A DNA stretch of 45,294 bases from an uncultured Gammaproteobacteria bacterium (GCA_964386875.1 CAYLUK010000001.1:1-45294); one strand, 5' to 3'. Positions 19,158 through 32,439 are shown, numbered from the stretch's first letter. Program-made: numbers and translations. The notes: generated from the letters alone by a model not told the origin.

Positions 19158-20621
19158 ATGGAACATATTAAGGCATCAAGCGCAATCAACCAATTTTACA
19201 GTATTGCTGCCTACGTCTATCTGGCAGCAATTATTGTAGTTGCAATGTTTTTGGGCATGTCACCCTTAATCTTTTTAGCTTTTGTGCTGATGGCAATAAT
19301 ATTTATTCTGCCTTCAAGCTTCTTGGGGTTGACCATAATTGTCAGTTTTACAATGATCTTTGAAAGATTTTTTACTCTGCAATCTTTGGTCTTAAACCAA
19401 GACATTTATAAAATTTATCCTTTAGATATTATCATTGGTCTGGCAGTAATCGCTTGGCTAATCAGCTTGCGGATCAACAAAAAACCATTCAAAATTCTAT
19501 TTGACTGGCCGGAAAGAATTTTGCTTATTTTTATCATCATTACTTGCGCCTCGTTTTTCCGCAGTCTGGCCAACATTAATACTGAACTGGCAGTCGCTTT
19601 CAGCACTTTCAAAAATTATGCCCTTTATCCAATCTTATATTTCCTGGTAATCTTTATTGTCCAAAATAAAGAACAATTCAAAAAACTTATCAACACCATC
19701 TTATTGTCTGGGCTAGCAATTATCACCTTTATTGTGATTGGTGCCATCAGGGGTCAGGGCTTATGGACTGAATTTACTCCCCTATCCACCACCGGCGTCA
19801 GGCTACTGGCCAGCACCCATGCTTTCTATCTGCTCCTCGTCATTTTAATTGCAACCAGCTTAGTTATTTTTGATCGCTTTTGGAACAAGGGAGTAATATT
19901 TTTAATCATTTGGGTGTGGATAATCGGCATTATGACTTCAATGATGAGGCACTTATGGCTGGCTCTGCCCTTTGGGCTGATGATAATCTTTTTACTGCTG
20001 AAAAAAAACAACCAGAAGAAAGCCCTGGTTTTTGCGGGCAAAAATATTCTAATTGCCTTGTCAATAATTGCCATTATTATCATGGCAGTTGTCATCTTCA
20101 ACCAGCAAGATAATTTTGACAATATCAGTGGTAATATTAAAAACATTGAAACCAGATTTATTTCTATCTTAGAAACCGGCCAAGATACTAGTGTTAATTG
20201 GCGCATCGGCCTTTGGCAATCAGCCAAAAAGTCATGGCAAGCCAGTCCAATCTTTGGTATTGGCCTAGGACGCAACATTTCTCTGGAAGTCGGCGACTGG
20301 CGCGCGTATGAAGAAGTCAGAAATTTGCATAATTCACTTCTGGCGATCACAATTCAAATGGGAATCTTGGGCATTACTGCCTTTGGTCTATTTATCTTGT
20401 CAGTTTTAGCAAAAAGCTGGAAGGTTGCCATGTCTGACCCGGAACTCAAGCCATACTTTATCGGAATCATCGCCTGCATTCTGACAATTTTATTTTGTAG
20501 TTTGTTTCAACCATATCTTGAGACTAATTTGACCGGCATTTTTCTTTGGCTGATGCTTGGTATCTTACGAACCAGCGCGATAATTATCAACCAACATGTT
20601 AAAAATACTACAAGTCAATAA
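19158..20621 (+). CDS. O-antigen ligase/polymerase-like (Wzy_C domain) membrane protein
   Basis: About 11-12 TM segments. Large loop with NLHNSLLAITIQMGILG, typical of the Wzy_C family. Confidence 0.7.
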   Translation: MEHIKASSAINQFYSIAAYVYLAAIIVVAMFLGMSPLIFLAFVLMAIIFILPSSFLGLTIIVSFTMIFERFFTLQSLVLNQDIYKIYPLDIIIGLAVIAWLISLRINKKPFKILFDWPERILLIFIIITCASFFRSLANINTELAVAFSTFKNYALYPILYFLVIFIVQNKEQFKKLINTILLSGLAIITFIVIGAIRGQGLWTEFTPLSTTGVRLLASTHAFYLLLVILIATSLVIFDRFWNKGVIFLIIWVWIIGIMTSMMRHLWLALPFGLMIIFLLLKKNNQKKALVFAGKNILIALSIIAIIIMAVVIFNQQDNFDNISGNIKNIETRFISILETGQDTSVNWRIGLWQSAKKSWQASPIFGIGLGRNISLEVGDWRAYEEVRNLHNSLLAITIQMGILGITAFGLFILSVLAKSWKVAMSDPELKPYFIGIIACILTILFCSLFQPYLETNLTGIFLWLMLGILRTSAIIINQHVKNTTSQ

Positions 20622-21813
20622 ATTCTTTTATCATCGTGGCGGGACAGAATCCTTCTTCTTTGACTTGTCAAAACTACTCCGCCAGCATGGCAATGAGGTG
20701 GTATTCTTTTCTCAACATAACCCGCGCAATCAATCCGACCAAGATGAAAAATATTTTATCCCAAATATTGAGCTGGGTAAATTCAACTGGCCGGCTTTAA
20801 TAAATCTAGGACGAATGTTCTGGTCTTTTACCGCCCAGAAAAAAATTAAACAGTTAATAAAAACCGAACAGCCTGATATTGCTCATATTCACAATATTTA
20901 TCATCAAATCTCACCCTCAATTTTGCCGATACTAAAATCAGCTGGCATACCAATTGTAATGACTGTGCATGACTTTAAGCTGATTAAGCCGGATTATACT
21001 TTACGGGCTGACAACAAAAAAGTAATCCACAAAAATTCAATTGTGGCTGACACTATATTGAAGTTAGAATTTTACTGGCATAAACTGCTCAAAATTTATC
21101 AAAAAAATGTTGACTTGTTCATCGCGCCGTCAGAATTTGTCAAAAACAAATTAATCGCGGGTGGCTTTGATAATAAAAAGATACAAGTCGTCCCCCATTT
21201 TATTGACACTAGTAATTATCCAAACGCCAGTGCCAAAATCGGCAATTATATCTTGTATTTTGGCCGACTGGATGAGAGCAAGGGCATTGATACACTGATT
21301 AAAGCATTAGCTGATACTGATGATAAAAGTATTATGCTCAAAATTGTCGGCAGTGGCCCGATGGAAAATGATCTTAAATCGTTAATCAGAGATTTAGATC
21401 TAAATAGTCGAATAGAACTGCTCGGTCAAAAAGATAAGGCGCAACTGATTGAAATTATCAGTGACTGTATGTTCACTGTTGTGCCCTCGCGTGTCCACGA
21501 AACTTTCGGTTTAAGCGCGCTTGAGAGCATGGCCTGTGGCAAGCCGGTCATTGCTACTTCAGCCGGCGCTCTTGATGAACTGGTAAAAGATCGTCAAACC
21601 GGACTAATTGTCAATGTAAATGACGCCAGTGGACTGACAGAAAAAATTAATTATCTTATCAGCAACCAAACTGAAATAATCAACTTGGGCAAAAATGCTC
21701 GCAAGCTAGCTGAAGAATATTCACCCCAAAGACATATCGACGCCATAACAAAAATATATCAATATTGTCATTCGGCTCCTCGCGAGGGGCTGAACCCAGC
21801 CCCTAATTTATGA
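20596..21813 (+). CDS. GT4-family glycosyltransferase
   Basis: MLKILQVNKFFYHRGG N-terminus and E-x7-E motif ETFGLSALESMACGKPVI. The GC-rich palindromic 3' end encodes the last 13 aa. Confidence 0.85.
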   Translation: MLKILQVNKFFYHRGGTESFFFDLSKLLRQHGNEVVFFSQHNPRNQSDQDEKYFIPNIELGKFNWPALINLGRMFWSFTAQKKIKQLIKTEQPDIAHIHNIYHQISPSILPILKSAGIPIVMTVHDFKLIKPDYTLRADNKKVIHKNSIVADTILKLEFYWHKLLKIYQKNVDLFIAPSEFVKNKLIAGGFDNKKIQVVPHFIDTSNYPNASAKIGNYILYFGRLDESKGIDTLIKALADTDDKSIMLKIVGSGPMENDLKSLIRDLDLNSRIELLGQKDKAQLIEIISDCMFTVVPSRVHETFGLSALESMACGKPVIATSAGALDELVKDRQTGLIVNVNDASGLTEKINYLISNQTEIINLGKNARKLAEEYSPQRHIDAITKIYQYCHSAPREGLNPAPNL

Positions 21814-23858
21814 AAAAAATAATTACCACAATTGGTATTTTGATTATATTAATCCCCTTCCATCTGGGGCAGGCTTATAATCTGCCAGATCATGATTTCC
21901 CCCGACTGGTTAATCTATATTGGAAAACACCACTTACCAAGACTGATGCCACAAAATTGGCCAAATGGGATATGGTGGCCTTAGATATGCAAGCCCAAAC
22001 TAACAGCCGAGAGGCAATCAACTATCTAAGGCAATTAAATCCCAATATTATTATTTTGGCTTATACCTCTGCCAATGAAGTGCCAAAAGAACGGCTGAAG
22101 ATTATTGAGCCCAACGGCCAAGGATTATGGCACAACCTAGTATCTGAAATTAATGACCAATGGTATTTAAAAACCACTTCCGGAAAGAATATTTCTTGGT
22201 GGGCAGGTAATGTGTCAATGAATTTATATACCCAAAACAGCCAAGGTCAAACTTACGCTGATTATCTGGCTGATTTTTATACTGATCAAGTATTATCAAC
22301 CGGCCTGTGGGACGGATTACTTTTTGACAATACTTGGCAGAATGTATATTGGGTCAATAAAGACATTGACATTGATGGCGACTCATATCGAGACAATGAA
22401 GAAGAAATTGACCGACGTTGGCGCGAAGGACACATCAACTTATTTGAAAATTTGAGAAATAAATTTGGCTCGAAATATCTGATCTTGGGCAATGGTGATG
22501 GCCAATTTGAATTCGTCACCAATGGCCGAGTATTTGAAGGCTTTCCGGAATATTATGAAGGTGAGTGGACAGGATCAATGAGTCGCTACCAAGACACCAA
22601 TCAATCCGGCTATAATCCCAGAATAAATATTATCAACAGTGACACCGACAATACCGGTAATCGCTCTGATTATCGGGCGATGAGATACGGCCTAACCAGC
22701 ACCCTGCTTGCTGACGGCTATTACAGCTTTGATTATGGCACCCAGCTTCGAGAGTATTTCTGGTGGTATGATGAATATGATGTAAATTTGGGTAAACCCA
22801 AAACTTCAGCTTTTGACCTGCTAAACAATAAAAAAACTGATATTGCCAAAAGTATTTGGCAAAGGGATTTTGAGAGTGGCGTTGTGTTGGTAAATTCAAC
22901 TGATAATTCCCAAAAAATTAAATTCAATTCAGAATATGAAAAACTTCACGGCACTCAGGACCAAGCAATTAACAATGGCGCGATTATCAACCAGCTTACT
23001 ATTGCTCCAAAAGACGGCATCATTCTACTCCGTCCAATTGAAAAAATCATCAATGCGGTTTTTACCAACGGCTCATTTGCTCGAATTTTCAACGGCTCCG
23101 GCCACAATATTAGAACCGGATTTTTCGCTTATGATGAAAACTTTCGTGGCAGTACCAAAATCATCTACACTGATATTGATCATGATACCAGAGCTGAAAC
23201 CATTGTGGCCAATAGTAATAAAGTTGAAATTTATAATGAATATAATGACAAATTGAAAACCATTTATCCATACGGCCACAATTATCAGTCGGGAATTTCA
23301 CTCGCTACTGCCGACATCAACGGCGACGGCCAGATTGAAATAATCACCAGTCCGGAAATTGGCATGTCCAATGAAATCAAAATTTTTAACTGGAAAGGCA
23401 ATGAACTATTCAGTTTCTACGCCTTCAATCAAGCTTGGGTGAATCTGGGAGCTAATGTTGCCGTCGGTGATATTAGTGGCGACGGTGAAGTGGAAATTAT
23501 CGCTTCAGCCAGCAATAAAGGCGGTCCGCACGTGAGAATTTTTGATAAAAATGGTAAACTAATATCAAATGGCTTCTTTGCTTATGATTCGGCTTTCCGC
23601 GGTGGTGTCAATTTGGCCACTGGTGATATCAACGGTGATGGCATTAACGAAATAATTACCGGTCCAGGTTTTGGCGGTGGTCCGCACGTGAGAATTTTCA
23701 ATCAAGCCGGCGAAGCGCTCGGCCAATGGTTTACGGCTGATGCCAATATTCGCGAAGGCATCAAAGTGGCTGTGTCTGATATTGACAACGACGGCACTGA
23801 TGAAATCATCACTTTGACCACCAATGTTTTTACTTATAGCTCGTATATAAGAAATTAA
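21810..23858 (+). CDS. Secreted putative glycoside hydrolase (GHL15/GH114-like TIM barrel) fused to FG-GAP repeats
   Basis: Signal peptide. WDMVALDMQ..., GLWDGLLFDN. C-terminal repeats ADINGDGQIEIIT, GDISGDGEVEIIA, GDINGDGINEIIT, SDIDNDGTDEIIT. ATGA overlap with the upstream GT gene. Confidence 0.65.
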   Translation: MKKIITTIGILIILIPFHLGQAYNLPDHDFPRLVNLYWKTPLTKTDATKLAKWDMVALDMQAQTNSREAINYLRQLNPNIIILAYTSANEVPKERLKIIEPNGQGLWHNLVSEINDQWYLKTTSGKNISWWAGNVSMNLYTQNSQGQTYADYLADFYTDQVLSTGLWDGLLFDNTWQNVYWVNKDIDIDGDSYRDNEEEIDRRWREGHINLFENLRNKFGSKYLILGNGDGQFEFVTNGRVFEGFPEYYEGEWTGSMSRYQDTNQSGYNPRINIINSDTDNTGNRSDYRAMRYGLTSTLLADGYYSFDYGTQLREYFWWYDEYDVNLGKPKTSAFDLLNNKKTDIAKSIWQRDFESGVVLVNSTDNSQKIKFNSEYEKLHGTQDQAINNGAIINQLTIAPKDGIILLRPIEKIINAVFTNGSFARIFNGSGHNIRTGFFAYDENFRGSTKIIYTDIDHDTRAETIVANSNKVEIYNEYNDKLKTIYPYGHNYQSGISLATADINGDGQIEIITSPEIGMSNEIKIFNWKGNELFSFYAFNQAWVNLGANVAVGDISGDGEVEIIASASNKGGPHVRIFDKNGKLISNGFFAYDSAFRGGVNLATGDINGDGINEIITGPGFGGGPHVRIFNQAGEALGQWFTADANIREGIKVAVSDIDNDGTDEIITLTTNVFTYSSYIRN

Positions 23859-23870
23859 GAAATTAATTAT

Positions 23871-25772
23871 ATGACTAACAACGGAAAACAACCAACTGAC
23901 ATCCGGGAGATAAAACCGGAACAAACCAAAATCATCGAGGCTAACGATCAGTCAGCAGTTATAATTGAACCCCAAAAATTAGATGTCAGAAAGGGTGGCA
24001 ATATTATTATTGGCACCTTAAATATCTTTGCCACGCCGGTCAAAAACCGCTGGCAAAAACATTATCATCCCAAAAACAAAAACTGGCATATTCACCTGAT
24101 TATGGATGCGATTTTAGCCATCATTATTTTAGGACTGATTACCGTTAATATTTATATTTTGAGCTATGGTGAATTTGGTCCGACCAGTAAAGTGGAAATT
24201 ACCATTACAACTAATAGTGAACTGATAATCAGTGGACAAAAAACCAGTTTTGTGATTGATTATAAAAACGGCTCCAAAACCAAACTGACTGATGCCAGCT
24301 TAACTGTTAATCTGCCGGAACACTTCATTATCAATGAAGTATCGCTCCAGACAATATTTACCAACCACAGTAATACATTTTCTCTTGGTGATTTAAATAG
24401 CGGCAGTAATGGCGAAATTACAATTACCGGTGTTGTCCTCGGCCAAACAGATCAAGCCCAAAACATTGACGCATCATTAAGCTTCAAACTTGAAAACTCA
24501 AACCGGAGACAAAGCAAACCAACCAGCTACCAATATGTTATAGCCGGATCAAATCTATCCTTGGCAATAGAAATGCCAAGCCAAGTGTCAAATGGCCAAA
24601 CATTTAATGGTCAAATCAAATACCAAAATAATTCATCAATTGATATTGCCAAACTAATTATCAATTACAGCGCCAACGGCAATAATTTTCAACTGACTGA
24701 TTCATCGCAAATTATCAAAGATAACTCCTGGACAATTATTTACCTTAAAGCCGGCACTGACGGCCAAATTAATTTTTCCGGTAAATTTATCAACTCGCCG
24801 GATGAAAGCGACGCGTCAATAGAATATATGATGGCGATTGGCCTGGGCAATAATGAATTAATCCAACAAAAAATCACCAAAGAAATAACTATCGCCCACT
24901 CAAAATTTAATTTGGAAATTACCGGCCAAAACAACAATATTGATTCCGATAAAGACAGTCAATATAATATCAGCTATCTTAATCAAGAAAATTTTACTCT
25001 GCAAAATGTCACTATCTCGGCCAAATTTGATTCTAATTTGGTTGACAACAATATAATCACTTGGACCAAAGCCGACTTGCCGGAATTGGCCAATATCGCG
25101 CCGGGACAAACCGGAGCAATTTCTTTTCCCATTAAAATCAAATCCACTATCAGTCAACTGACCGAAACTGACAAAAACTTTACGCTCCAAGCCGTGGCCG
25201 AAGCCACCTACCAAACCGCTGATGGCACCAATAATAAATTTTACAGTTTTTCCGACCGGCTAATTCAAAAACTAAATACCGACCTCAATCTCAAAGCCTT
25301 TGGCCGGTATTATACCCAAGAAGGCGACCAGCTTGGCATTGGACCAACACCGCCGATAGTCGGGCAAGTCACTAAATATTGGATATTTTTTAATCTGGAA
25401 AATAAATATAATGATGTTAGTGACGTTATGGTGTCGGCTCGGTTGCCTGAAAATATCTCCTTCACCGGCAAAACCAGCACCACCGAAGATCAACCACCAA
25501 TATTTAACGCCAACAACCGACAAATAAGCTGGCAGATAAATACTGTGACAGCGCCATCTGAATTTTTCTCCAGTATTGGGGCGACATTTGAAATAGAGCT
25601 TATTCCGCAAAATACCGACATTGGCAAAACTGTTGATTTAATAACAAACATTTCAATCACTGGCAATGATGTGTTTACTGGCTACAAAATAATTAAAACT
25701 GTGGATAATATCACGACTAATTTGACCAACGACACCAAGGAAAATAGTGGAGGTGTTGTTCAAGGACAATAA
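23871..25772 (+). CDS. Large membrane-anchored surface protein with repeated beta-sandwich (DUF11/CARDB-like) modules
   Basis: Roughly 75-aa cytoplasmic N-terminus, one TM (IHLIMDAILAIIILGLITVNIYIL), then about 530 aa rich in N/T/S/I with a periodic beta-strand pattern. Confidence 0.55.
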   Translation: MTNNGKQPTDIREIKPEQTKIIEANDQSAVIIEPQKLDVRKGGNIIIGTLNIFATPVKNRWQKHYHPKNKNWHIHLIMDAILAIIILGLITVNIYILSYGEFGPTSKVEITITTNSELIISGQKTSFVIDYKNGSKTKLTDASLTVNLPEHFIINEVSLQTIFTNHSNTFSLGDLNSGSNGEITITGVVLGQTDQAQNIDASLSFKLENSNRRQSKPTSYQYVIAGSNLSLAIEMPSQVSNGQTFNGQIKYQNNSSIDIAKLIINYSANGNNFQLTDSSQIIKDNSWTIIYLKAGTDGQINFSGKFINSPDESDASIEYMMAIGLGNNELIQQKITKEITIAHSKFNLEITGQNNNIDSDKDSQYNISYLNQENFTLQNVTISAKFDSNLVDNNIITWTKADLPELANIAPGQTGAISFPIKIKSTISQLTETDKNFTLQAVAEATYQTADGTNNKFYSFSDRLIQKLNTDLNLKAFGRYYTQEGDQLGIGPTPPIVGQVTKYWIFFNLENKYNDVSDVMVSARLPENISFTGKTSTTEDQPPIFNANNRQISWQINTVTAPSEFFSSIGATFEIELIPQNTDIGKTVDLITNISITGNDVFTGYKIIKTVDNITTNLTNDTKENSGGVVQGQ

Positions 25773-25810: not shown

Positions 25811-25845
25811 ACCCGATTTTAAGCATCTAAAATCCGGGTTTTTTG
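25811..25845 (+). terminator. Intrinsic terminator of the glycan operon
   Basis: ACCCGATTTT-aagcatct-AAAATCCGGGT followed by TTTTTT. Confidence 0.65.
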
Positions 25846-25922
25846 ATTAAAAAATATCTAAATTTATACAAATATACCAAAAAATAAAAATACCAATCAC
25901 TGATTACTTTTTAAGGGCTGTC

Positions 25923-25977
25923 TAGTTAACATTAGTCACCCTTATCTTATCAAAAAGTAACCCTTTAATGTTAACTA
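25923..25977. repeat. Perfect 12-bp inverted repeat, its right arm ending 9 nt upstream of the P1 -35 hexamer
   Basis: TAGTTAACATTA (25923-25934) and TAATGTTAACTA (25966-25977), 31-nt spacer. Confidence 0.85.
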
Positions 25978-25986
25978 TACAATGGC

Positions 25987-26015
25987 TTGACAAAATATAA
26001 TATATTTGCTAAGAT
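25987..26015 (+). promoter_or_regulatory. Promoter P1 of the first GC-rich block
   Basis: GGCTTGACA-17 nt (ending TGC)-TAAGAT. 15/15 nt AATGGCTTGACAAAA identical to P2. About 180-nt leader. Confidence 0.6.
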
Positions 26016-26199
26016 ATTCCATTAAGCAGGTTTTTAACCTTGCTTATAAATTAAGGAGAAATTGAACCTTGAAAACAATCCAGTCAGAAAATGACTGGTG
26101 AAAATATATATAAGGGAAGAGAGGTAACAAAAACCAAACAACAACAGGGACAAAGGGTTCCCTAAAACTGGCTAAAAACCAGCAGAAAAGGAGACAAGA

Positions 26200-27639
26200 A
26201 TGAATAAGTATGGATTGTTGATTGGAATGTGTGTATTAGTAGCGGGTCTAACCGGCTGTCCCGAAGGGACGCCGGTGCCGTCGGCAACATTTGAAATCGT
26301 TGACGGCGACTTGTGGCTGAATGTGTATGTCGGCCACACCCCGCTCCAGCGGGTGTTCTATGGCGTGCCATGGGACTTCCGCGAAAAGCGCGAGGAGTTT
26401 CGCCTCGGCCCGATTATGTGGTACGATGATGATGAAATTCCCGGTTTTGTGAACACCGAACCGCTTAGACGCGGTGACACGATGAGCTTCAACCTCGGCG
26501 CGACTACTCCTGACCGGGTTGAGTCACTTCGAGTGACATTGTGTGGAACGTTTAACCGATTGCTTTACGACGATGTATTTCCCAACTGGGGAATCTTGTC
26601 TGATTACCGGGCTCAAAGCTACTTTGAGATTCCGGGCGTCGGTATTTTCAGCTGGGCCAAGATTGGAGAATGGTCGGCCAGCTACAACGGCGTCGCCCTA
26701 GGCGAAGCAGTTGATGCCAGTGGCAATGGACTCGGCTACTGGCAGATTGATCTGCCTCAAGCGCCACCTCCGCCCCAAACCTTTACCTTGACGACCGGCG
26801 TGGTTGGACAGGGCACGGCAACAGGTGGTGGCGTGTATCCAGCCGGAACCAATGTTGTCATCACAGCGAATCCGGCGATTGATTGGCATTTCGTGCGCTG
26901 GCAAGGCGATATTGTGGGCACGGACAATCCGGCGACCGTCACTATGAACAGTAATGTTCTGGCCACGGCCGTATTTGCCCAAGATACGCCACCTCCACCC
27001 GATAACTACACCTTGACGACTAATGTGGTTGGACAAGGCAGTGTCACCGGCGCCGGCGTTTACAACAGCGGAGCTATCGCAACGCTCACAGCGAATCCGG
27101 CGATTGGTTGGCGTTTTGCCGGCTGGACTGGCGATCTAGCTGGATTGCAAAATCCGGCCAATGTCACAATGAACACCAACAAGGGTGTCACGGCGACGTT
27201 TGAACAGATCCCGGAGCCACACACAGACGCGATGGTTGTGTTCACTACGGCTGACAGTGATTCGGTCCAGATGACAATTCTTCCCGGTCAAGAAGACCTG
27301 GGGGGCATCATCTCGCCGGCATCAAACTTGCCGAGTGGAGCAACTTTCGCGGATGTAGCGAGAGTTGGTATCCAATGGATGAGTGTTGGCCACTATCCGT
27401 ACTTCATTCAAGAGGACTATGCCGCGACGATGACAGCATCGGGCTCGCAAATCAAAGCGTTTGGTGCCGACGGCTTTATCCTAAGTAGCCGGCCAAATGA
27501 CTTCAAATGCGTGCCCTATGTGATGGTGACAGGCGATGCCAATACTCGCTACTATGTCAACACCTCAATGGTGCCTGGCAAGTGGGATGGCGTCGCCTTG
27601 ACCCGTCTAATTGACGGGCACAGCTACGACATGAACTAA
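26200..27639 (+). CDS. Lipoprotein with two InlB-B-type (Listeria-Bacteroides) repeats flanked by unknown domains
   Basis: Lipobox LTG|C (residues 17-20). Repeats at about residues 193-335 (TFTLTTGVVGQGTATGGGVY...DWHFVRWQGD...ATAVF; YTLTTNVVGQGSVTGAGVY...GWRFAGWTGD...TATF). AAGGAGA SD. GC-rich after codon ~18. Confidence 0.8.
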   Translation: MNKYGLLIGMCVLVAGLTGCPEGTPVPSATFEIVDGDLWLNVYVGHTPLQRVFYGVPWDFREKREEFRLGPIMWYDDDEIPGFVNTEPLRRGDTMSFNLGATTPDRVESLRVTLCGTFNRLLYDDVFPNWGILSDYRAQSYFEIPGVGIFSWAKIGEWSASYNGVALGEAVDASGNGLGYWQIDLPQAPPPPQTFTLTTGVVGQGTATGGGVYPAGTNVVITANPAIDWHFVRWQGDIVGTDNPATVTMNSNVLATAVFAQDTPPPPDNYTLTTNVVGQGSVTGAGVYNSGAIATLTANPAIGWRFAGWTGDLAGLQNPANVTMNTNKGVTATFEQIPEPHTDAMVVFTTADSDSVQMTILPGQEDLGGIISPASNLPSGATFADVARVGIQWMSVGHYPYFIQEDYAATMTASGSQIKAFGADGFILSSRPNDFKCVPYVMVTGDANTRYYVNTSMVPGKWDGVALTRLIDGHSYDMN

Positions 27640-27710
27640 GTCGGATCGGGGCAGTCAGTAATTGCGCTGACTGCTCCGCCTCCCTTACCTCAACCCAGAA
27701 GGAGACAGCT

Positions 27711-27938
27711 ATGTCACCAGAAGAAGGCTTAGCGATATTGCTCTTGATAGGATTAACTTCGGTGCCGATTTTCTTGATTGGCGGCCGATTTATCCTCGCC
27801 ACGGGCGCGGCAGTTTCCACCGCTATTACCGCGACCAAGCTGGTTGCGGCCGGCACTTTGGCGACCGTCGGCAGTGTCATTCTGCCCATTGGTCAATTTC
27901 TTCAGGATTTTTTTACTTATGTAAAATATCCCCACTAA
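27711..27938 (+). CDS. Small hydrophobic Gly/Ala/Thr-rich membrane ORF (75 aa)
   Basis: AAGGAGACA SD 4 nt upstream. 2-3 predicted TM helices. The last ~14 codons run from GC-rich into AT-rich DNA. Confidence 0.5.
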   Translation: MSPEEGLAILLLIGLTSVPIFLIGGRFILATGAAVSTAITATKLVAAGTLATVGSVILPIGQFLQDFFTYVKYPH

Positions 27939-27974
27939 TTTTATTTTTTTATTTCGTCCATAAATGGACAATTC

Positions 27975-28005
27975 GGACTATCAGATCGCTGGTAGTCCTT
28001 TTTTA
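27975..28005 (+). terminator. Intrinsic terminator ending the first GC-rich block
   Basis: GGACTATCAG-atcg-CTGGTAGTCC followed by TTTTTTATTT. Confidence 0.7.
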
Positions 28006-28097
28006 TTTAAATTTAGCTAATAATATACAAAAATATCTTCAAAATAACGTTATAAATTATGCGTTACACGTGCGGTTATAAACCCACCCCAAATGGC

Positions 28098-28126
28098 TTG
28101 ACAAAACTATTAATCTTTGCTAAAAT
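28098..28126 (+). promoter_or_regulatory. Promoter P2 of the second GC-rich block
   Basis: GGCTTGACA-17 nt (ending TGC)-TAAAAT. About 140-nt leader. Confidence 0.6.
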
Positions 28127-28270
28127 ATGCTGTTAAACATTATTAGCTGATTAAGCTAAAGATGTTTACTGCACGTTAAAAATCAACCTGTAAAACAGGA
28201 GAATTAGATATAGCAACTTAAAAACCACACCCAAACCACCATCCGATTACTCGGAACAAGGAGACAACCA

Positions 28271-29443
28271 ATGGCAATGAGGAAAAGAAGTTCTTCAATT
28301 TTTTATGTAGTGGTACTGATGGTTATTTCTACATCTTTAGGCAATAGCAGTATTATTGCTGCCAAAGATGTTAAACATGAGCAATTCCCAGCAAAATTGT
28401 ATGCGAATGAGGATGTCAACCAAAGCGGATCTGTCGATGCGCTAGACATTCAGATAGTAATCAATGTCGTTCTGGGGCTAGGCTACGACGCGTGCCTGCC
28501 TGATGTTAACCGCAGTGGCGCAGTTGATGCCATTGATATCCAGATGGTGATCAATGCGGTTTTAAGACTACACATCACCTATCCCCCACCCGCCAGCGCC
28601 TACGCAAACTACAACGACGCCTCCGACGAGTTGTGGCTGACGCTTGACTTGGGCGGCGAGACTATGAGTAACGCTTTCATCGGCCTTGATGATGTCGCAG
28701 ACATTACCGAGGTTGGAGTAGCGTCGTGGCTGCCGGAGAAGCAGGCTTGGGATGTCTATTCCACTGCTTCACTCTGGCCTGATGGCTGGCCCGTGGATGT
28801 CCAAGTGGCAAGTTTTCAACCGCCGATCGTGATTCTCAATATTATTGCAATCGGTCCGGTGACTCTTAATCACCCCGACGGCATCTACTGGGGCAACTTG
28901 GACTGGTGGGCATTTTCCTCTAACAAGGAAGTACTGCCAAGGAATCCGGGCGAACCGCAGAAGATTGATTTGGGAGTTGTCTTTGAGCCCGCCAGCGCCT
29001 ACGCAAACTACAACGACGCCTCCGGCGAGTTGTGGCTGACGCTTGACTTGGGCGGCGAGACAGTCCAAAACGCTTTCATCGGCCTTGATGATGTCGCAGA
29101 CATTACCGAGGTTGGAGTAGCGTCGTGGCTGCCGGAGAAGCAGGCTTGGGATGTCTATTCCACTGCTTCACTCTGGCCTGATGGCTGGCCCGTGGATGTC
29201 CAAGTGGCAAGTTTTCAACCGCCGATCGTGATTCTCAATATTATTGCAATCGGTCCGGTGACTCTTAATCACCCCGACGGCATCTACTGGGGCAACTTGG
29301 ACTGGTGGGCATTTTCCTCTAACAAGGAAGTACTGCCAAGGAGTCCCGGTGAGCCCCAGAAAATTAATTTGGGGTTTAACGCTTATCATCTCACCATTGA
29401 AATTATCGGCAATGGCTCAGTGCAAACTAGAGAACTGCCGTAA
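28271..29443 (+). CDS. Secreted protein: signal peptide, two dockerin-type Ca-binding repeats, and a tandemly duplicated 133-aa domain
   Basis: Signal MAMRKRSSSIFYVVVLMVISTSLG. Dockerin repeats DVNQSGSVDALDIQIVINVVLG and DVNRSGAVDAIDIQMVINAVL. Two copies of PASAYANYNDAS.ELWLTLDLGGE... AAGGAGACAA SD. Confidence 0.8.
   Translation: MAMRKRSSSIFYVVVLMVISTSLGNSSIIAAKDVKHEQFPAKLYANEDVNQSGSVDALDIQIVINVVLGLGYDACLPDVNRSGAVDAIDIQMVINAVLRLHITYPPPASAYANYNDASDELWLTLDLGGETMSNAFIGLDDVADITEVGVASWLPEKQAWDVYSTASLWPDGWPVDVQVASFQPPIVILNIIAIGPVTLNHPDGIYWGNLDWWAFSSNKEVLPRNPGEPQKIDLGVVFEPASAYANYNDASGELWLTLDLGGETVQNAFIGLDDVADITEVGVASWLPEKQAWDVYSTASLWPDGWPVDVQVASFQPPIVILNIIAIGPVTLNHPDGIYWGNLDWWAFSSNKEVLPRSPGEPQKINLGFNAYHLTIEIIGNGSVQTRELP
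28589..29386 (+). repeat. In-frame 399-bp tandem duplication (2 copies) inside the dockerin protein gene
   Basis: Copy 1 at 28589-28987, copy 2 at 28988-29386. 274 nt (28670-28943 vs 29069-29342) are identical by hand alignment. Confidence 0.95.
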
Positions 29444-29537
29444 TTTCGCCAAGCAAAAATACTCGGAGTTAGACAGTATGTTTGGCTCCGAGCTAAACTA
29501 CAACAACAGCAAAAAACCAACAAAAAGGAGAAGCAGA

Positions 29538-30734
29538 ATGAACAAGAGCTTGATGATGGTGATTTTGATGGCGCTGGTGTCGGCAATTGCCAGTGCCCAA
29601 GGAACGGTCATTGCAACCGAACGCTACTATGGAGAAGGCGTGGTCGTCAAAGTGGAGGCCGTGCCTGATGCCGGCTGGGTGTTTAGCCACTGGGAAGGCG
29701 CTCTGACTGGCTCAATCAACCCGACGACCATTACCATGAACGCTGATCAAACGGTCCGGGCCGTGTTTATTGAAGAACCGGCTACCACCTTAACAATCAA
29801 TCTTAATGGATATGGCTCGGTAACTCCTAATCCGACCGGTCCTGACTATGTCACCAACACCTTGGTGACGCTCACAGCCACGGCCGATCCTGGCTGGCGC
29901 TTTGACCACTGGGAAGGCGATCTGACCGGCTCAATCAACCCGACGACCATCACTATGGACACGGACAAGACTGTCACGGCCGTATTTGTGGAAATTCCGA
30001 TTGTCAGCTTGACGCTCAACACTATGGGCAGTGGATCTGTCAATCCCAATCCAGCCGGCCCCGATTACTATCAAGGCACTGTCGTGACGGTCACAGCCAC
30101 GGCTGGTATAGGCTGGGCGTTTGACCACTGGGAAGGAGATTTGACTGGGTCAACAAATCCGACGACCGTCGCCATGGACACAAGCAAAACGGCCACGGCT
30201 GTATTTGTGGAAATTCCGGTCAATACTCCGGAGTTTCGCCTGCTAAACAATGGTGGCGCCTTGGATGCCAGTTTCAACGCCAACGGCGTGCCAATCAACA
30301 CTCTCCTCAATGGCGGACTGGCTGCCAATGAAGTAGTGGATCGTCTGGCTATGTGTTTTATGTGGCCAAGCGATGTTCCAAACAATCTGGCCATTGAGCA
30401 TGAACCTCTGCCTGGAGGATTGCCAGCTAACGCTTTCTCGGCAACGGTGAATTTCAACGGCACCAACTGCCTTGATACAAACTATACTGGCGACCGAGAT
30501 TTTCCTTTCGGTGAAGAAGATTCATATTTAGTGTATGGAGTTGTCCGTATCACTAATACGGCCACTGGCAACACTAGGTTTGACTCCATGAACACCGACC
30601 TGATCAACCTCACTTTTGACGGGGTGAGCCAAAATCGGGTTGGCACCAATTTCTTGCTAGTGTTGCGTACCACCTTTGCCCTCACCATTGAGGTAGAAGG
30701 GTCAGGCACAGTCAACACAAATATTGTTCCTTAA
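29538..30734 (+). CDS. Secreted protein with three InlB-B-type repeats and an unknown C-terminal domain
   Basis: Start moved to ATG 29538 (AAGGAGAAG SD; signal MNKSLMMVILMALVSAIASA|QG). Repeats contain GWVFSHWEGALTG, GWRFDHWEGDLTG, GWAFDHWEGDLTG. The track's 29349 start overlaps the upstream gene. Confidence 0.8.
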   Translation: MNKSLMMVILMALVSAIASAQGTVIATERYYGEGVVVKVEAVPDAGWVFSHWEGALTGSINPTTITMNADQTVRAVFIEEPATTLTINLNGYGSVTPNPTGPDYVTNTLVTLTATADPGWRFDHWEGDLTGSINPTTITMDTDKTVTAVFVEIPIVSLTLNTMGSGSVNPNPAGPDYYQGTVVTVTATAGIGWAFDHWEGDLTGSTNPTTVAMDTSKTATAVFVEIPVNTPEFRLLNNGGALDASFNANGVPINTLLNGGLAANEVVDRLAMCFMWPSDVPNNLAIEHEPLPGGLPANAFSATVNFNGTNCLDTNYTGDRDFPFGEEDSYLVYGVVRITNTATGNTRFDSMNTDLINLTFDGVSQNRVGTNFLLVLRTTFALTIEVEGSGTVNTNIVP

Positions 30735-30748
30735 CTCGAGTTTCAATG

Positions 30749-30782
30749 GGCGACAGATAACACATCTGCCGCCTCTTTTTTT
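30749..30782 (+). terminator. Intrinsic terminator ending the second GC-rich block
   Basis: GGCGACAGAT-aacac-ATCTGCCGCC (one mismatch) followed by TCTTTTTTT. Confidence 0.7.
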
Positions 30783-30813
30783 ACCCGATGGAATAAAAAT
30801 TATTCCATCGGGT
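30783..30813. repeat. Perfect 13-bp palindromic hairpin immediately after the terminator T-run
   Basis: ACCCGATGGAATA-aaaat-TATTCCATCGGGT. Confidence 0.9.
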
Positions 30814-30919
30814 GAACCCTTAAATCTATTAATATATTTACCTAAATTTGACTAAACATATAAAAATATCCTCAAAATATTACTCATTACCCATTACTTT
30901 TTCTTTACTTTTTTCTGGC

Positions 30920-30948
30920 TTGACAATTTTTTTCAGATATGGTAAGAT
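30920..30948 (+). promoter_or_regulatory. Promoter P3 (glycosyltransferase gene)
   Basis: GGCTTGACA-17 nt (ending TGG)-TAAGAT, 19 nt upstream of ATG 30968. Confidence 0.6.
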
Positions 30949-30967
30949 GATACATCAATTTAAAAGT

Positions 30968-32119
30968 ATGAAAATAGCGTTTATCGGACAAAAAGGCATC
31001 CCAACCAAGCAGGGCGGGATCGAAAAACACGTTCAAGAGCTTAGTACCAGACTGGCTAAAGCTGATTTTGACGTGACTGTATATTCTAGGCCTTATTATA
31101 CTGGTAGCCACCGAACAAAATACGGCCAAATTAAAATTGTTAATTTGCCATCTTTAAAAACTAAAAATTTTGATGCCATCAGTCACACCTTTTTGGCCAG
31201 TATTCATGCTATTTTCCAAAACTACGACATTATCCATTATCATGGCGTCGGCCCATCATTAATGTCATGGATTCCCAGACTATTCAATCCTTGTGCCAAA
31301 GTAATCGCCACTTTTCATTGTGTTGATCGAAAACATCAAAAGTGGGGACTAATCGCCAGAACTATGCTCGGACTTGGCGAATGGGCCACTTGCCGTTTTC
31401 CCCATGAGACAATCGTCGTATCTGAAACTTTGAAAAAGTATTGTGAATATAGATTTGATCGACAAACCACCTACATCCCCAATGGTGTTCAAATCAATCA
31501 CAGCAAACAAAAAAGTGATATTATTGCTAACTATGGTCTAAAGCAAGACCGGTATTTACTGATAGTTTCTCGACTGGTCAAACATAAAGGAATTCACACT
31601 TTAATTGAAGCGTATCAAAAAACCAAGACCAACCAGAAACTGGTAATCGTTGGTACTGGTTCAAATACCAATAATTATATTGACTACTTGAAAGAACTGG
31701 CTCAAGGCAATGAAAATATTATTTTTACCGGCCAGAAAAGTGGCAATGATCTAGAAACCCTATTTCGTGGCGCCTATGCCTTTGTCCAGCCATCAGAAGC
31801 GGAAGGACTGTCAATCGCCTTACTTGAAGCGATTGCTTATGGCCTGCCAGTGATAATCAGCAACATTGAAGAGAATATTGAAGCGGCTAATGGCTTTGGC
31901 ATTGTATTTGAAAATCGTAACATTAATGACTTAAGTAATAAAATTACTTGGGTAATTAAAAATAAAGCCCTAATTAAGAAGCAAGCACGAGTAGCAAAAA
32001 ATAAAATTAACCAAAAATATAATTGGACTGATATTGCCAGCCAAACCAGCGAACTATACCAAAACATTGTTGCAGAAAACAGAAACAGAAAATATCTGCC
32101 CAAGATTATTTTGAAATAA
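30968..32119 (+). CDS. GT4-family glycosyltransferase
   Basis: Start moved to ATG 30968 (MKIAFIGQKGIPTKQGGIEKHV); the track's upstream extension covers the promoter. E-x7-E motif EAEGLSIALLEAIAYGLPVI. Host-like AT-rich composition. Confidence 0.85.
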   Translation: MKIAFIGQKGIPTKQGGIEKHVQELSTRLAKADFDVTVYSRPYYTGSHRTKYGQIKIVNLPSLKTKNFDAISHTFLASIHAIFQNYDIIHYHGVGPSLMSWIPRLFNPCAKVIATFHCVDRKHQKWGLIARTMLGLGEWATCRFPHETIVVSETLKKYCEYRFDRQTTYIPNGVQINHSKQKSDIIANYGLKQDRYLLIVSRLVKHKGIHTLIEAYQKTKTNQKLVIVGTGSNTNNYIDYLKELAQGNENIIFTGQKSGNDLETLFRGAYAFVQPSEAEGLSIALLEAIAYGLPVIISNIEENIEAANGFGIVFENRNINDLSNKITWVIKNKALIKKQARVAKNKINQKYNWTDIASQTSELYQNIVAENRNRKYLPKIILK

Positions 32120-32185: not shown

Positions 32186-32439
32186 TAAAAAAGTCTTCAA
32201 AATAATGCGGTCTTGAAAGATTTAACCACAAAACTAAGGCGAAGACGAACGATTTTGCCATCGTTTATGGCAAAAAGATTTTTACTGTTTAAAACCGCCG
32301 ATTAAAATCAAAAAAAAAGCGGTTGAGCTAAAAAATCTAATGAAGATGAGCAGTTAGGTTTTGTCTATTTTTTTCAACAGTTGCGATTTTGGCTCCACCC
32401 TCATAAAAAGATGGGGATGATATTTAGAATATTTTATTT

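Follow-up and report, generated by a model that had tools for sequence, protein, structure and literature searches.

A GC-rich surface-protein slot beside the type IV pilus operon of a Buchananbacteria-like Patescibacterium: probably a long-resident, variable locus

Does a block of genes far richer in G+C (GC) than its surroundings mark a recent import, or can it be an old resident of the genome that carries it? The question is raised by a stretch of 45,294 nucleotides (nt) (CAYLUK010000001.1 of GCA_964386875.1; the whole stretch is called the window below), in which four plus-strand open reading frames (ORFs) at 26200–30734 form two blocks, ORF1 with a small 75-amino-acid (aa) ORF (ORF1b) and ORF2 with ORF3. 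This position, here termed the slot, has a Wzz/Wzy/GT4/GHL15-FG-GAP/p633 glycan cluster on its upstream side and a GT4-pilB-pilC-pilin operon on its downstream side. A preliminary description had read the genes as a variable surface module between glycan and type IV pilus genes, acquired horizontally from a GC-richer donor. The first half of that reading stands, the slot holding exported modular proteins; the second does not, since slot position, gene class and composition are kept in 21 lineages. Taken as a whole, the observations are probably best explained by a resident, lineage-wide, highly variable surface-protein locus of Buchananbacteria-like Patescibacteria. At the level of sequence, comparison among lineages shows a fixed chromosomal slot with fast turnover of content, encoding exported modular β-sandwich proteins, whose composition and expression signals are traits of the class.

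The compositional contrast itself is clear. Mean GC in the window is 39.6%, against 50–61% in two blocks at approximately 26.2–27.9 and 28.4–30.7 kilobases (kb); windows of 500 nt give GC of 0.50–0.55 at 26.5–28.0 and 28.5–30.5 kb versus 0.26–0.46 elsewhere, and windows of 150 nt peak at 0.607. The 39 other ORFs of the window average 0.387 GC (standard deviation (sd) 0.032, maximum 0.433) and 0.383 GC at third codon positions (GC3; sd 0.035, maximum 0.443). The GC-rich block reported previously was therefore confirmed (slot ORFs 0.50–0.54 GC; see also Table 1), as was a GC3 of 0.43 for pilB, but the GC3 of approximately 75% given for the slot was an overestimate: measured values are 0.53–0.59, and only local 30-codon windows of slot genes attain 0.77–0.83.

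Such a jump might have been created during assembly, by the joining of GC-rich fragments of another organism to a Patescibacteria contig. The composition jump alone speaks for this chimera, and its probability is negligible: ten contigs, each assembled independently and together representing six samples or more, span every composition boundary at 99.5–100% identity to the window across different sources and assemblers (JGI, ENA MEGAHIT and SPAdes, Logan), in agreement with the view previously taken, and the same architecture is present in 21 other lineages. These contigs were found by exact-protein look-up (JGI 3300009031; ENA ERZ5996431; several groundwater runs of PRJNA292723; Logan assemblies). 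All differences between assemblies fall inside a tandem repeat in ORF2, as one versus two copies or as copy-specific variants swapped 399 base pairs (bp) apart, the sequences being identical elsewhere over up to 21 kb; the repeat differences could be real intragenic recombination or short-read mis-assembly.

The flanking PilB and p633 proteins are recorded as ‘Patescibacteria group bacterium’ and relatives of PilB are labelled Candidatus Buchananbacteria, and by these protein matches the organism is a Buchananbacteria-like Patescibacterium. Several public MAG records (L011, L017, L018 and L019; CAZEKG010000001.1 and others) are titled ‘uncultured Gammaproteobacteria bacterium’ and encode PilB proteins 60–72% identical to that of the window, L011 having in addition the whole glycan-slot-pilus gene order; the titles look mislabelled.

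The slot is kept in at least 21 related lineages, with one to four plus-strand lipoprotein or secreted-protein genes between the GHL15/p633 glycan cluster and GT4-pilB. No empty slot was found among the 21 syntenic lineages; the same gene class occupies each. Sibling flanks are 62–80% (PilB, where measured) and 54–74% (GT4) identical to those of the window, against identities of 26–62% among ORF1-type C-terminal domains (C-domains); homologues of p633 lie directly 5′ of the slot in L029, L031, L033, L035, L040, L105 and L108. The closest relative, L105 (GT4 74%, PilB 80% identical), has a single slot gene, of GC 0.55 and GC3 0.61 in a host of GC 0.28–0.34 and GC3 0.19–0.28. The closest locus from a species-representative genome, L011 (PilB 72% identical), reads Wzz-Wzy-GT4, lipoprotein, ppa-GT4-PilB-PilC, and its lipoprotein is a full-length homologue of ORF1 (30% identical, with N-domain, two InlB repeats and C-domain), of GC 0.55 in a host of approximately 0.40. 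Eighty loci came from a metagenome scan in which the downstream GT4 served as anchor; wherever GT4 is 54–65% identical and the upstream side is kept (15 loci), one or two plus-strand lipoprotein or secreted-protein genes precede GT4, and these are generally GC-richer than their flanks. To sixteen metagenome loci with this arrangement the C-domain family adds L105, L107, L108, L109 and L110, of which four have the same placement with both sides informative; L110 is informative on its upstream side, the contig ending at the slot gene. In most siblings with the N-terminus present, the first slot gene encodes a lipoprotein with a ...GC-P lipobox, and the genes after it encode secreted proteins. 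Only in the more distant L043 and L100 does p633 directly adjoin GT4. The preliminary description had named orthologues with the same composition and synteny throughout the lineage as the sign of an old resident locus; synteny and composition are kept across the lineage, and the locus is therefore an old resident.

The taxonomy of best matches had been put forward as a check. The four unassigned domains of ORF1–3, searched as one joined query by a word-indexed search of 5.8 billion proteins, matched only themselves; a profile built with sibling sequences gave an ORF1 family of seven protein clusters, one named Candidatus Buchananbacteria. An exhaustive HMMER search with the ORF1 C-domain found 16 relatives among 1.84 billion representative proteins, and all of those looked up with informative flanks sit in the slot. 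Full-length ORF1 found matches only via its InlB repeats, in many phyla (26–59% identity over the repeats). Non-repeat domains thus lack relatives outside the clade in either search, and the repeat domain of ORF2 and the C-domain of ORF3 weakly match slot modules of siblings and not outside proteins.

Signs of mobility were sought as well, and the earlier claim of their absence holds within the scope covered: there was no tRNA and no Rfam match in the window, no direct repeat flanking the slot and no similarity to phage or plasmid DNA, while integrases and transposases were absent by Pfam from the slot proteins and their immediate flanks, and from Pfam listings for 10 kb on either side, a set that comprises part of the window's ORFs. 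An integron-type cassette array was rejected on the grounds that each unit has its own promoter and terminator, that no integrase occurs in the proteins scanned or the neighbouring Pfam listings, and that no attC-like repeat family lies between the genes. A diversity-generating retroelement target was likewise rejected, the only repeats being InlB units and the ORF2 tandem repeat, with no reverse transcriptase in gene calls or Pfam listings for approximately 10 kb on either side.

If the four genes had recently come from a donor of higher GC, such as a host or neighbour, and been placed under native promoters, this would account for a jump that shows at every codon position, for a synonymous shift that is uniform at 4–5 sd, and for ribosome-binding sites atypical of the host (see below). 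The single slot gene of L105 means that ORF1b, ORF2 and ORF3 were gained here or lost there. Further, the first ~45 codons of ORF2 (28271–28405; signal peptide and linker) have native GC3, 0.27–0.40 against 0.5–0.8 in the remainder, a step that may mark a recombination junction within the coding sequence and that has no counterpart in ORF1 or ORF3. In the corresponding position of the more distant L073 (1401–10000), an 8.6-kb block of 62–65% GC (GC3 0.80–0.90) lies directly 5′ of GT4 in a 38% GC neighbourhood; it encodes lipoproteins or secreted proteins with MopE-type metal-binding and Dictyostelium-type repeats and looks like a true import or a mis-join. Against these points, the slot recurs in 21 lineages with the same class of genes and the same composition, ORF1 orthologues among them; no non-repeat domain has a donor homologue in the two protein collections; ORF2 and ORF3 domains weakly match sibling modules; and no mobility features were detected. 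Recent import is on balance improbable, and for ORF1 it is largely refuted.

If the slot is resident, its composition might be expected to track that of the host, and it does so only in part. Across 21 lineages, native genes around the slot range over 0.31–0.57 GC (sd 0.076) and 0.24–0.79 GC3, while slot genes stay within 0.46–0.62 GC (mean 0.543 ± 0.036) and 0.46–0.75 GC3 (mean 0.61); regressing slot on native values gives a slope of 0.34 for GC (r = 0.71) and one of 0.29 for GC3. In AT-rich hosts the synonymous excess is highly significant (z approximately 5–6 in L011, L031, L033 and L036), and it is mostly non-significant in hosts with GC3 of 0.5 or more (z < 1 in L025, L026, L035 and L038), and in the GC-richest host, L109, slot GC3 (0.65–0.71) is below that of the host (0.74–0.83). 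Slot GC thus exceeds that of AT-rich hosts and equals or falls short of that of the GC-richest. It is only in hosts whose genomes have departed from ~55% GC that the slot seems foreign. As a pattern, it is clear that ~54% GC is a conserved property of the gene class and, we infer, not a mark of recent import.

The same data bear on whether amino-acid composition alone could be responsible, modules rich in G, A, P, T, V and W requiring GC-rich codons. Slot proteins are enriched in these six residues and depleted in K, I, E and Q, GC at codon positions 1 and 2 is 0.50 in slot genes versus 0.40 in native genes, and the GC3 expected from their amino-acid composition with native codon choice rises from 0.38 to 0.43; the mostly non-significant excess in GC-richer hosts also fits. 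However, observed GC3 is 0.575, with all synonymous codon families shifted to G/C endings, and the excess left after amino-acid correction (+0.14 to +0.16) equals 4.3–4.9 sd of native genes. Among AT-rich hosts it is +0.14 to +0.30, or 4–6 sd (window, L011, L031, L033 and L036), the offset in L105 is as wide as given above, and the window's own native surface proteins (p633 and GHL15/FG-GAP) have host-like composition. The GC excess is thus partly a matter of amino-acid composition and for the rest a uniform synonymous shift; as the full explanation amino-acid composition is refuted, with only a slight chance left to it, and it stands as a partial contributor.

The encoded proteins are modular and either exported or anchored at the surface. 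Pfam upheld the product calls made previously: PF18998 (Flg_new_2, the InlB repeat; cut-off 23.6 bits) matches ORF1 at 95.6 bits in two units and ORF3 at 137.1 bits in three, and PF00404 (Dockerin_1; cut-off 22.9) matches ORF2 at 49.9 bits over residues 47–98, where two D-x-N-x-S-G-x-x-D-x-x-D loops are visible (DVNQSGSVDALD and DVNRSGAVDAID). ORF1 begins with MNKYGLLIGMCVLVAGLTG/C, fitting the lipobox pattern [LVI][ASTVI][GAS]C, and comprises in order this lipobox (LTGC), a variable N-domain (21–193), two divergent InlB B-repeats (194–340) and a C-terminal β-sandwich (341–479) conserved clade-wide. ORF2 comprises a signal peptide, a type I dockerin (45–104), two 133-aa domains without assigned family, encoded by the 399-bp tandem duplication, and an InlB-like tail; ORF3 comprises a signal peptide, three InlB B-repeats, the first of which lacks its first strand, a ~150-aa C-terminal domain without assigned family and a truncated repeat-like tail. 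It was also observed that ORF2 (29380–29443) and ORF3 (30675–30734) end in ~20 residues, HLTIEIIGNGSVQTRELP and ALTIEVEGSGTVNTNIVP respectively, resembling the first β-strand of an InlB B-repeat; together with the strand-less first repeat of ORF3, these tails suggest past breakage or joining within repeats. ORF2 has no sequence relative in PDB. ORF1b is a candidate gene, predicted by gene callers in five other assemblies of the same population and without a counterpart in sibling lineages.

A full-length AlphaFold model of ORF1 (seven-sequence alignment) was poor outside the InlB repeats (predicted local distance difference test score (pLDDT) 63.5) and confident (>90) only over them. The C-domain modelled separately from 14 sequences gave an all-β sandwich (pLDDT 81, predicted TM-score (pTM) 0.79), and on this model the domain is a generic sandwich of the immunoglobulin (Ig) or fibronectin type III (FnIII) kind that forms a new sequence family. 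Its identification as a cohesin was considered and rejected, the model having no cohesin match by Foldseek against PDB.

Non-repeat segments recur among slot proteins of different lineages and at different gene positions. When slot proteins were compared all-against-all with InlB repeats removed, N-domains, two types of C-domain and Ig-like modules recurred in varied orders, and modules were also seen to move between the first and second slot gene. Pfam recognised I-set/Ig_3, Bact_surface_Ig-like and InlB domains in sibling slot proteins, with TSP3 sub-threshold; dockerin-like N-termini are visible in the L027 and L040 sequences, in which Pfam calls no dockerin. As judged from these comparisons, there is a clade-specific pool of shuffled β-sandwich modules, consisting of InlB B-repeats, Ig I-set and bacterial surface Ig-like domains, dockerin-like calcium loops and several unassigned domains.

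Slot proteins are usually far more diverged than their flanks (window versus L105: C-domain 41%, GT4 73% identity). DNA identity in close pairs gives a different measure, with slot versus flank values of 82 versus 80% in L026/L029, 81 versus 86% in L032/L040 and 66 versus 81% in L031/L033; in no pair measured does slot identity exceed flank identity by more than ~2 points, which shows, for these alignments, vertical descent of the slot in close lineage pairs. A putative recent transfer between L037 and L039 (slot domain 81%, GT4 59% protein identity) was rejected, as slot and flank DNA are equally diverged at ~70%, the high slot-domain identity being due to protein conservation. C-domain identity does not correlate significantly with GT4 identity (rho 0.28), and the L011 C-domain is 57–62% identical to those of L035 and L109, while its GT4 is closer to those of L025 and L105; this incongruence suggests old allele classes or occasional exchange.

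The slot genes also have expression signals of their own. The slot comprises two transcription units, each with its own promoter and each ended by a hairpin and T run, as described previously. Only three exact copies of the 9-mer GGCTTGACA lie in the 45 kb (25984, 28095 and 30917), and each heads a TTGACA-17-TGnTAAnAT promoter. As described previously, these promoters are host-style; the ribosome-binding sites are not: an AAGGAGA Shine-Dalgarno site precedes all four slot ORFs and none of the other 38 (42 ORF starts examined in the window). The leaders of both ORF1 and ORF2 combine a 5′-end hairpin, a C/A-rich tract and a strong Shine-Dalgarno site, AAGGAGA being unpaired in that of ORF1, and fold with z-scores of −3.6 and −4.6 respectively (0/200 shuffles as good in either case).

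These traits are shared. At 13 loci, TTGACA-N16-18-TAnnnT lies 98–241 nt 5′ of every slot gene except the co-transcribed ORF3, mostly with an extended −10 (TG), and a strong AGGAG site accompanies most slot genes. For the neighbouring GT4 the promoter distance is 46–69 nt (129 nt in L011), and a strong ribosome-binding site is lacking. Slot leaders span 90–240 nt across transcription units. Among 840 ORFs from 63 Patescibacteria loci (L011–L110), a Shine-Dalgarno-like motif is present on 14%, for a chance occurrence estimated from base frequencies at ~6–15%, but it is found on 62% of GC-rich ORFs (at least 8 GC points above the median of their own locus) versus 11% of the rest (Fisher p = 1e-19). 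GC-rich, Shine-Dalgarno-bearing genes in these loci tend to encode exported proteins. The link suggests a special expression regime for the class. Near-consensus promoter, 5′-end leader hairpin and strong ribosome-binding site together point to abundant, stable mRNAs and predicted high expression of slot genes. No ribosomal-protein gene was among the ten ORFs scanned for a codon-usage test of translational selection.

What, then, holds the class near 54% GC? Tentatively, and with rather less than even confidence, we ascribe it to an old slot-specific pool of alleles and modules, exchanged at intervals via the conserved flanks and only partly pulled towards the composition of each host; this would fit the approach to one value from above and from below, the mosaic of modules and the discordance between C-domain and GT4. 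Selection tied to the special expression regime is a lesser possibility, consistent with the Shine-Dalgarno link and with maintenance through vertical descent, although to our knowledge no mechanism for expression-linked selection on composition has been described. GC-biased gene conversion has been proposed for recombining bacterial genes (PMC4450053). Were the slot a recombination hot spot in which heteroduplex repair favours G/C at all sites, the shift to G/C endings would be uniform over all codon families, as observed, and would extend to non-coding DNA, as in the ORF1–ORF1b gap (71 nt, 59% GC); module mosaicism and swaps between ORF2 repeat copies do imply frequent recombination. Conversion bias alone does not, however, predict a slot GC3 below or equal to that of the host (L109 and L108), the GC3 offset of up to +0.38 (L105) is far above the effects reported for bacteria, and the population has no polymorphism to convert save in the ORF2 repeat. 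L109 and the size of the offset in particular make this a poor candidate. That the cause is something not yet thought of is unlikely, yet deserves more weight than gene conversion.

Given a resident, variable surface-protein locus, a mechanism may be outlined. Each transcription unit, with near-consensus sigma-70 promoter, structured leader, strong AGGAG site and own terminator, would yield abundant stable mRNA. The ORF1 lipoprotein would be tethered to the membrane, its InlB repeats acting as spacers that hold the conserved C-domain away from the cell, and the dockerin protein ORF2, together with ORF3, would be a secreted partner joining ORF1 at the cell surface. Turnover of modules between lineages would fit surface recognition under diversifying pressure, whether host-cell attachment alongside the pilus or escape from phage, and the locus may thus serve cell-surface recognition together with the adjacent pilus and glycan genes.

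Several observations weigh against this reading or parts of it. High expression and adhesion are predictions from sequence signals and domain types. By Pfam, neither slot nor flanks encode a cohesin as partner for the ORF2 dockerin, and Foldseek found no PDB structure matching the ORF1 C-domain model at E < 1e-3 (best TM-score 0.40, FnIII domains). The sampled population is invariant at the locus save for the ORF2 repeat, so that diversification is visible only between lineages. DNA comparison of 22 lineages shows no sign of recent transfer from one to another, which means that a common pool would have to be of great age or seldom exchanged. The host GC values are estimates from the DNA flanking each slot, up to 10 kb per side. 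Finally, a shift so even over codon families resembles biased mutation or conversion more closely than it does selection on codons.

Among known systems, the nearest parallels are surface-antigen loci that are hypervariable and keep an atypical GC, O-antigen loci for instance, together with the variable lipoprotein loci of Mollicutes. The first kind includes the O-antigen and capsule clusters of Enterobacteria and, in marine bacteria, the flexible or ‘metagenomic’ islands, all hypervariable, with conserved flanks and atypical GC. Like such islands, the slot has a fixed position, content differing between close relatives, surface-exposed products, atypical composition in every lineage and no mobility genes; it differs in carrying proteins rather than sugar-pathway genes as cargo, in an offset that is upward in AT-rich hosts but disappears or changes sign in GC-rich ones, and in giving each gene its own strong promoter, together with a long leader and a genome-rare ribosome-binding site. 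The vlp, vsp and vsa families of Mycoplasma are variable surface lipoprotein families of Mollicutes, and resemble the slot in belonging to a small-genome, host-dependent bacterium and in having clustered lipoprotein genes, paralogous per-gene promoter regions and internal tandem repeats of varying copy number. In contrast to these loci, the slot shows no sign of phase-variable promoters, with neither a variable homopolymer tract nor an invertible element (assemblies being identical outside the ORF2 repeat), its modules are folded β-sandwich domains rather than short low-complexity repeats, and its variation lies between lineages, not within a clone.

As in other InlB B-repeat proteins (Listeria-Bacteroides repeat; Pfam Flg_new/Flg_new_2, TIGR02543), the repeats sit like spacers between extracellular modules, but the slot proteins, unlike Listeria internalins, lack leucine-rich repeats, GW modules and LPXTG anchors, and their flanking domains are clade-specific. 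The type I dockerin of ORF2, with its duplicated calcium-binding loop and helix, recalls cohesin–dockerin assemblies; in contrast to cellulosome-type assemblies, ORF2 carries no glycoside hydrolase, and Pfam gave no cohesin in the slot or its flanks. Many dockerins occur outside cellulosomes, for the most part without a known partner. No paper combining Patescibacteria with InlB was found in the literature, and the nearest published case, a hypervariable repeat gene in a Gracilibacterium, is a different phenomenon (PMC6851277). What is new relative to these analogues is the constancy of composition across hosts of 31–57% GC and the near-exclusive use of Shine-Dalgarno sites by slot genes.

As predicted tethered lipoproteins with secreted partners, diverging far faster than their neighbours, beside a type IV pilus operon and with every sequence sign of heavy expression, the slot products are candidates for the means by which ultra-small episymbiotic Patescibacteria recognise their host cells and stay attached to them. 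The locus also carries a caution for screens of horizontal transfer, in that a compositionally foreign-looking island may be an old resident, here with GC steadier than that of the genomes around it. Were the link between GC-richness and Shine-Dalgarno sites in the 63 loci to hold genome-wide, two modes of translation initiation would coexist in one small genome. A more speculative suggestion, on which we would place little reliance, is that Patescibacteria may keep a separate class of exported genes, with private strong promoter, long structured leader, canonical Shine-Dalgarno site and ~55% GC in hosts of 31–57%, held there by selection on mRNA or DNA and not by gene flow; the pilus-side slot would be its clearest example, with fast-evolving lipoproteins deciding which host cell is attached.

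Table 1. Features of the slot and its immediate flanks (coordinates in the window).
Feature	Coordinates	Strand	GC	GC3	Remarks
p633	23871–25772	+	0.385		upstream conserved flank; 633-aa membrane/surface protein; native GC
p633 terminator	25812–25845	+			hairpin and T run, identified by eye from sequence
Promoter P1	25984–26015	+			GGCTTGACA-N17-TGCTAAGAT; extended −10
Predicted ORF1 5′ leader	26022–26199	+			~178 nt; start inferred from −10 position
ORF1	26200–27639	+	0.544	0.592	479-aa lipoprotein
ORF1b (candidate 75-aa ORF)	27711–27938	+	0.496	0.526	two hydrophobic segments; own AAGGAGA; shares GC-rich block and transcription unit with ORF1
Terminator, transcription unit 1	27975–28004	+			10-bp stem at 27975–27998 with 5 GC pairs, then TTTTTTATTT (T run)
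Promoter P2	28095–28126	+			GGCTTGACA-N17-TGCTAAAAT; 11/12 consensus positions; extended −10
Predicted ORF2 5′ leader	28133–28270	+			~138 nt
ORF2	28271–29443	+	0.508	0.563	390-aa secreted protein
ORF2 tandem repeat	28589–29373	+			399 bp, 2.0 copies, 96% identical
ORF3	29538–30734	+	0.520	0.574	398-aa secreted protein; co-transcribed with ORF2; own AAGGAGA
Terminator, transcription unit 2	30748–30782	+			hairpin GGCGACAGAT...ATCTGCCGCC, then T run; by eye
Promoter P3	30917–30948	+			GGCTTGACA-N17-TGGTAAGAT; serves GT4; short leader, no Shine-Dalgarno site
GT4 glycosyltransferase	30968–32119	+			downstream conserved flank; native composition; followed by pilB, pilC and pilin genes

The AT-rich spacers at 25830–26030, 27985–28140 and 30820–30965 are mutually alignable over the stretch that runs from the preceding terminator to the promoter (a module of ~150 nt), and by this alignment they are paralogous copies of one regulatory module, made up of a terminator tail, an A/T-rich box (AAAAATATCYTCAAAATA) and the GGCTTGACA promoter; this suggests growth of the array by recombination or duplication inside the slot. 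The box AAAAATATCYTCAAAATA, present 5′ of ORF2 and GT4 and, with two mismatches, 5′ of pilB at 32187, was considered as a shared regulatory box and rejected: its recurrence is near chance (2/100 shuffles reach three matches) and siblings lack it. The start of ORF3 is the ATG at 29538, preceded by AAAGGAGAAGCAGA, and not the GTG at 29349. A second inverted repeat lies at 30780–30816, 3′ of the terminator of transcription unit 2.

Some minor observations concern the same region. The gap between ORF1 and ORF1b (27640–27710) contains a hairpin, GCAGTCAG...CTGACTGC, and may be an intercistronic structure. The spacer of the GT4 promoter (30920–30948) holds a run of seven T (TTGACAATTTTTTTCAG...), of a slippage-prone type, that is identical in all assemblies covering it. 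A further GC-rich set of two or three genes was seen between Wzz-like and Wzy-like genes in more distant loci (L058:3998–7091, L069:2698–6038, L078:2096–5297, L082:1033–4088 and L084:2441–4644); it encodes a lipoprotein and secreted proteins, one with LysM, and most of the genes have Shine-Dalgarno sites. Upstream of the slot, a GT4 gene (20596–21813) and GHL15/FG-GAP (21810–23858) are separate, overlapping genes in the window; the two are fused into one ORF of approximately 1090 aa in L035 (3898–7170), L040 (2063–5329) and L108 (3829–7095).

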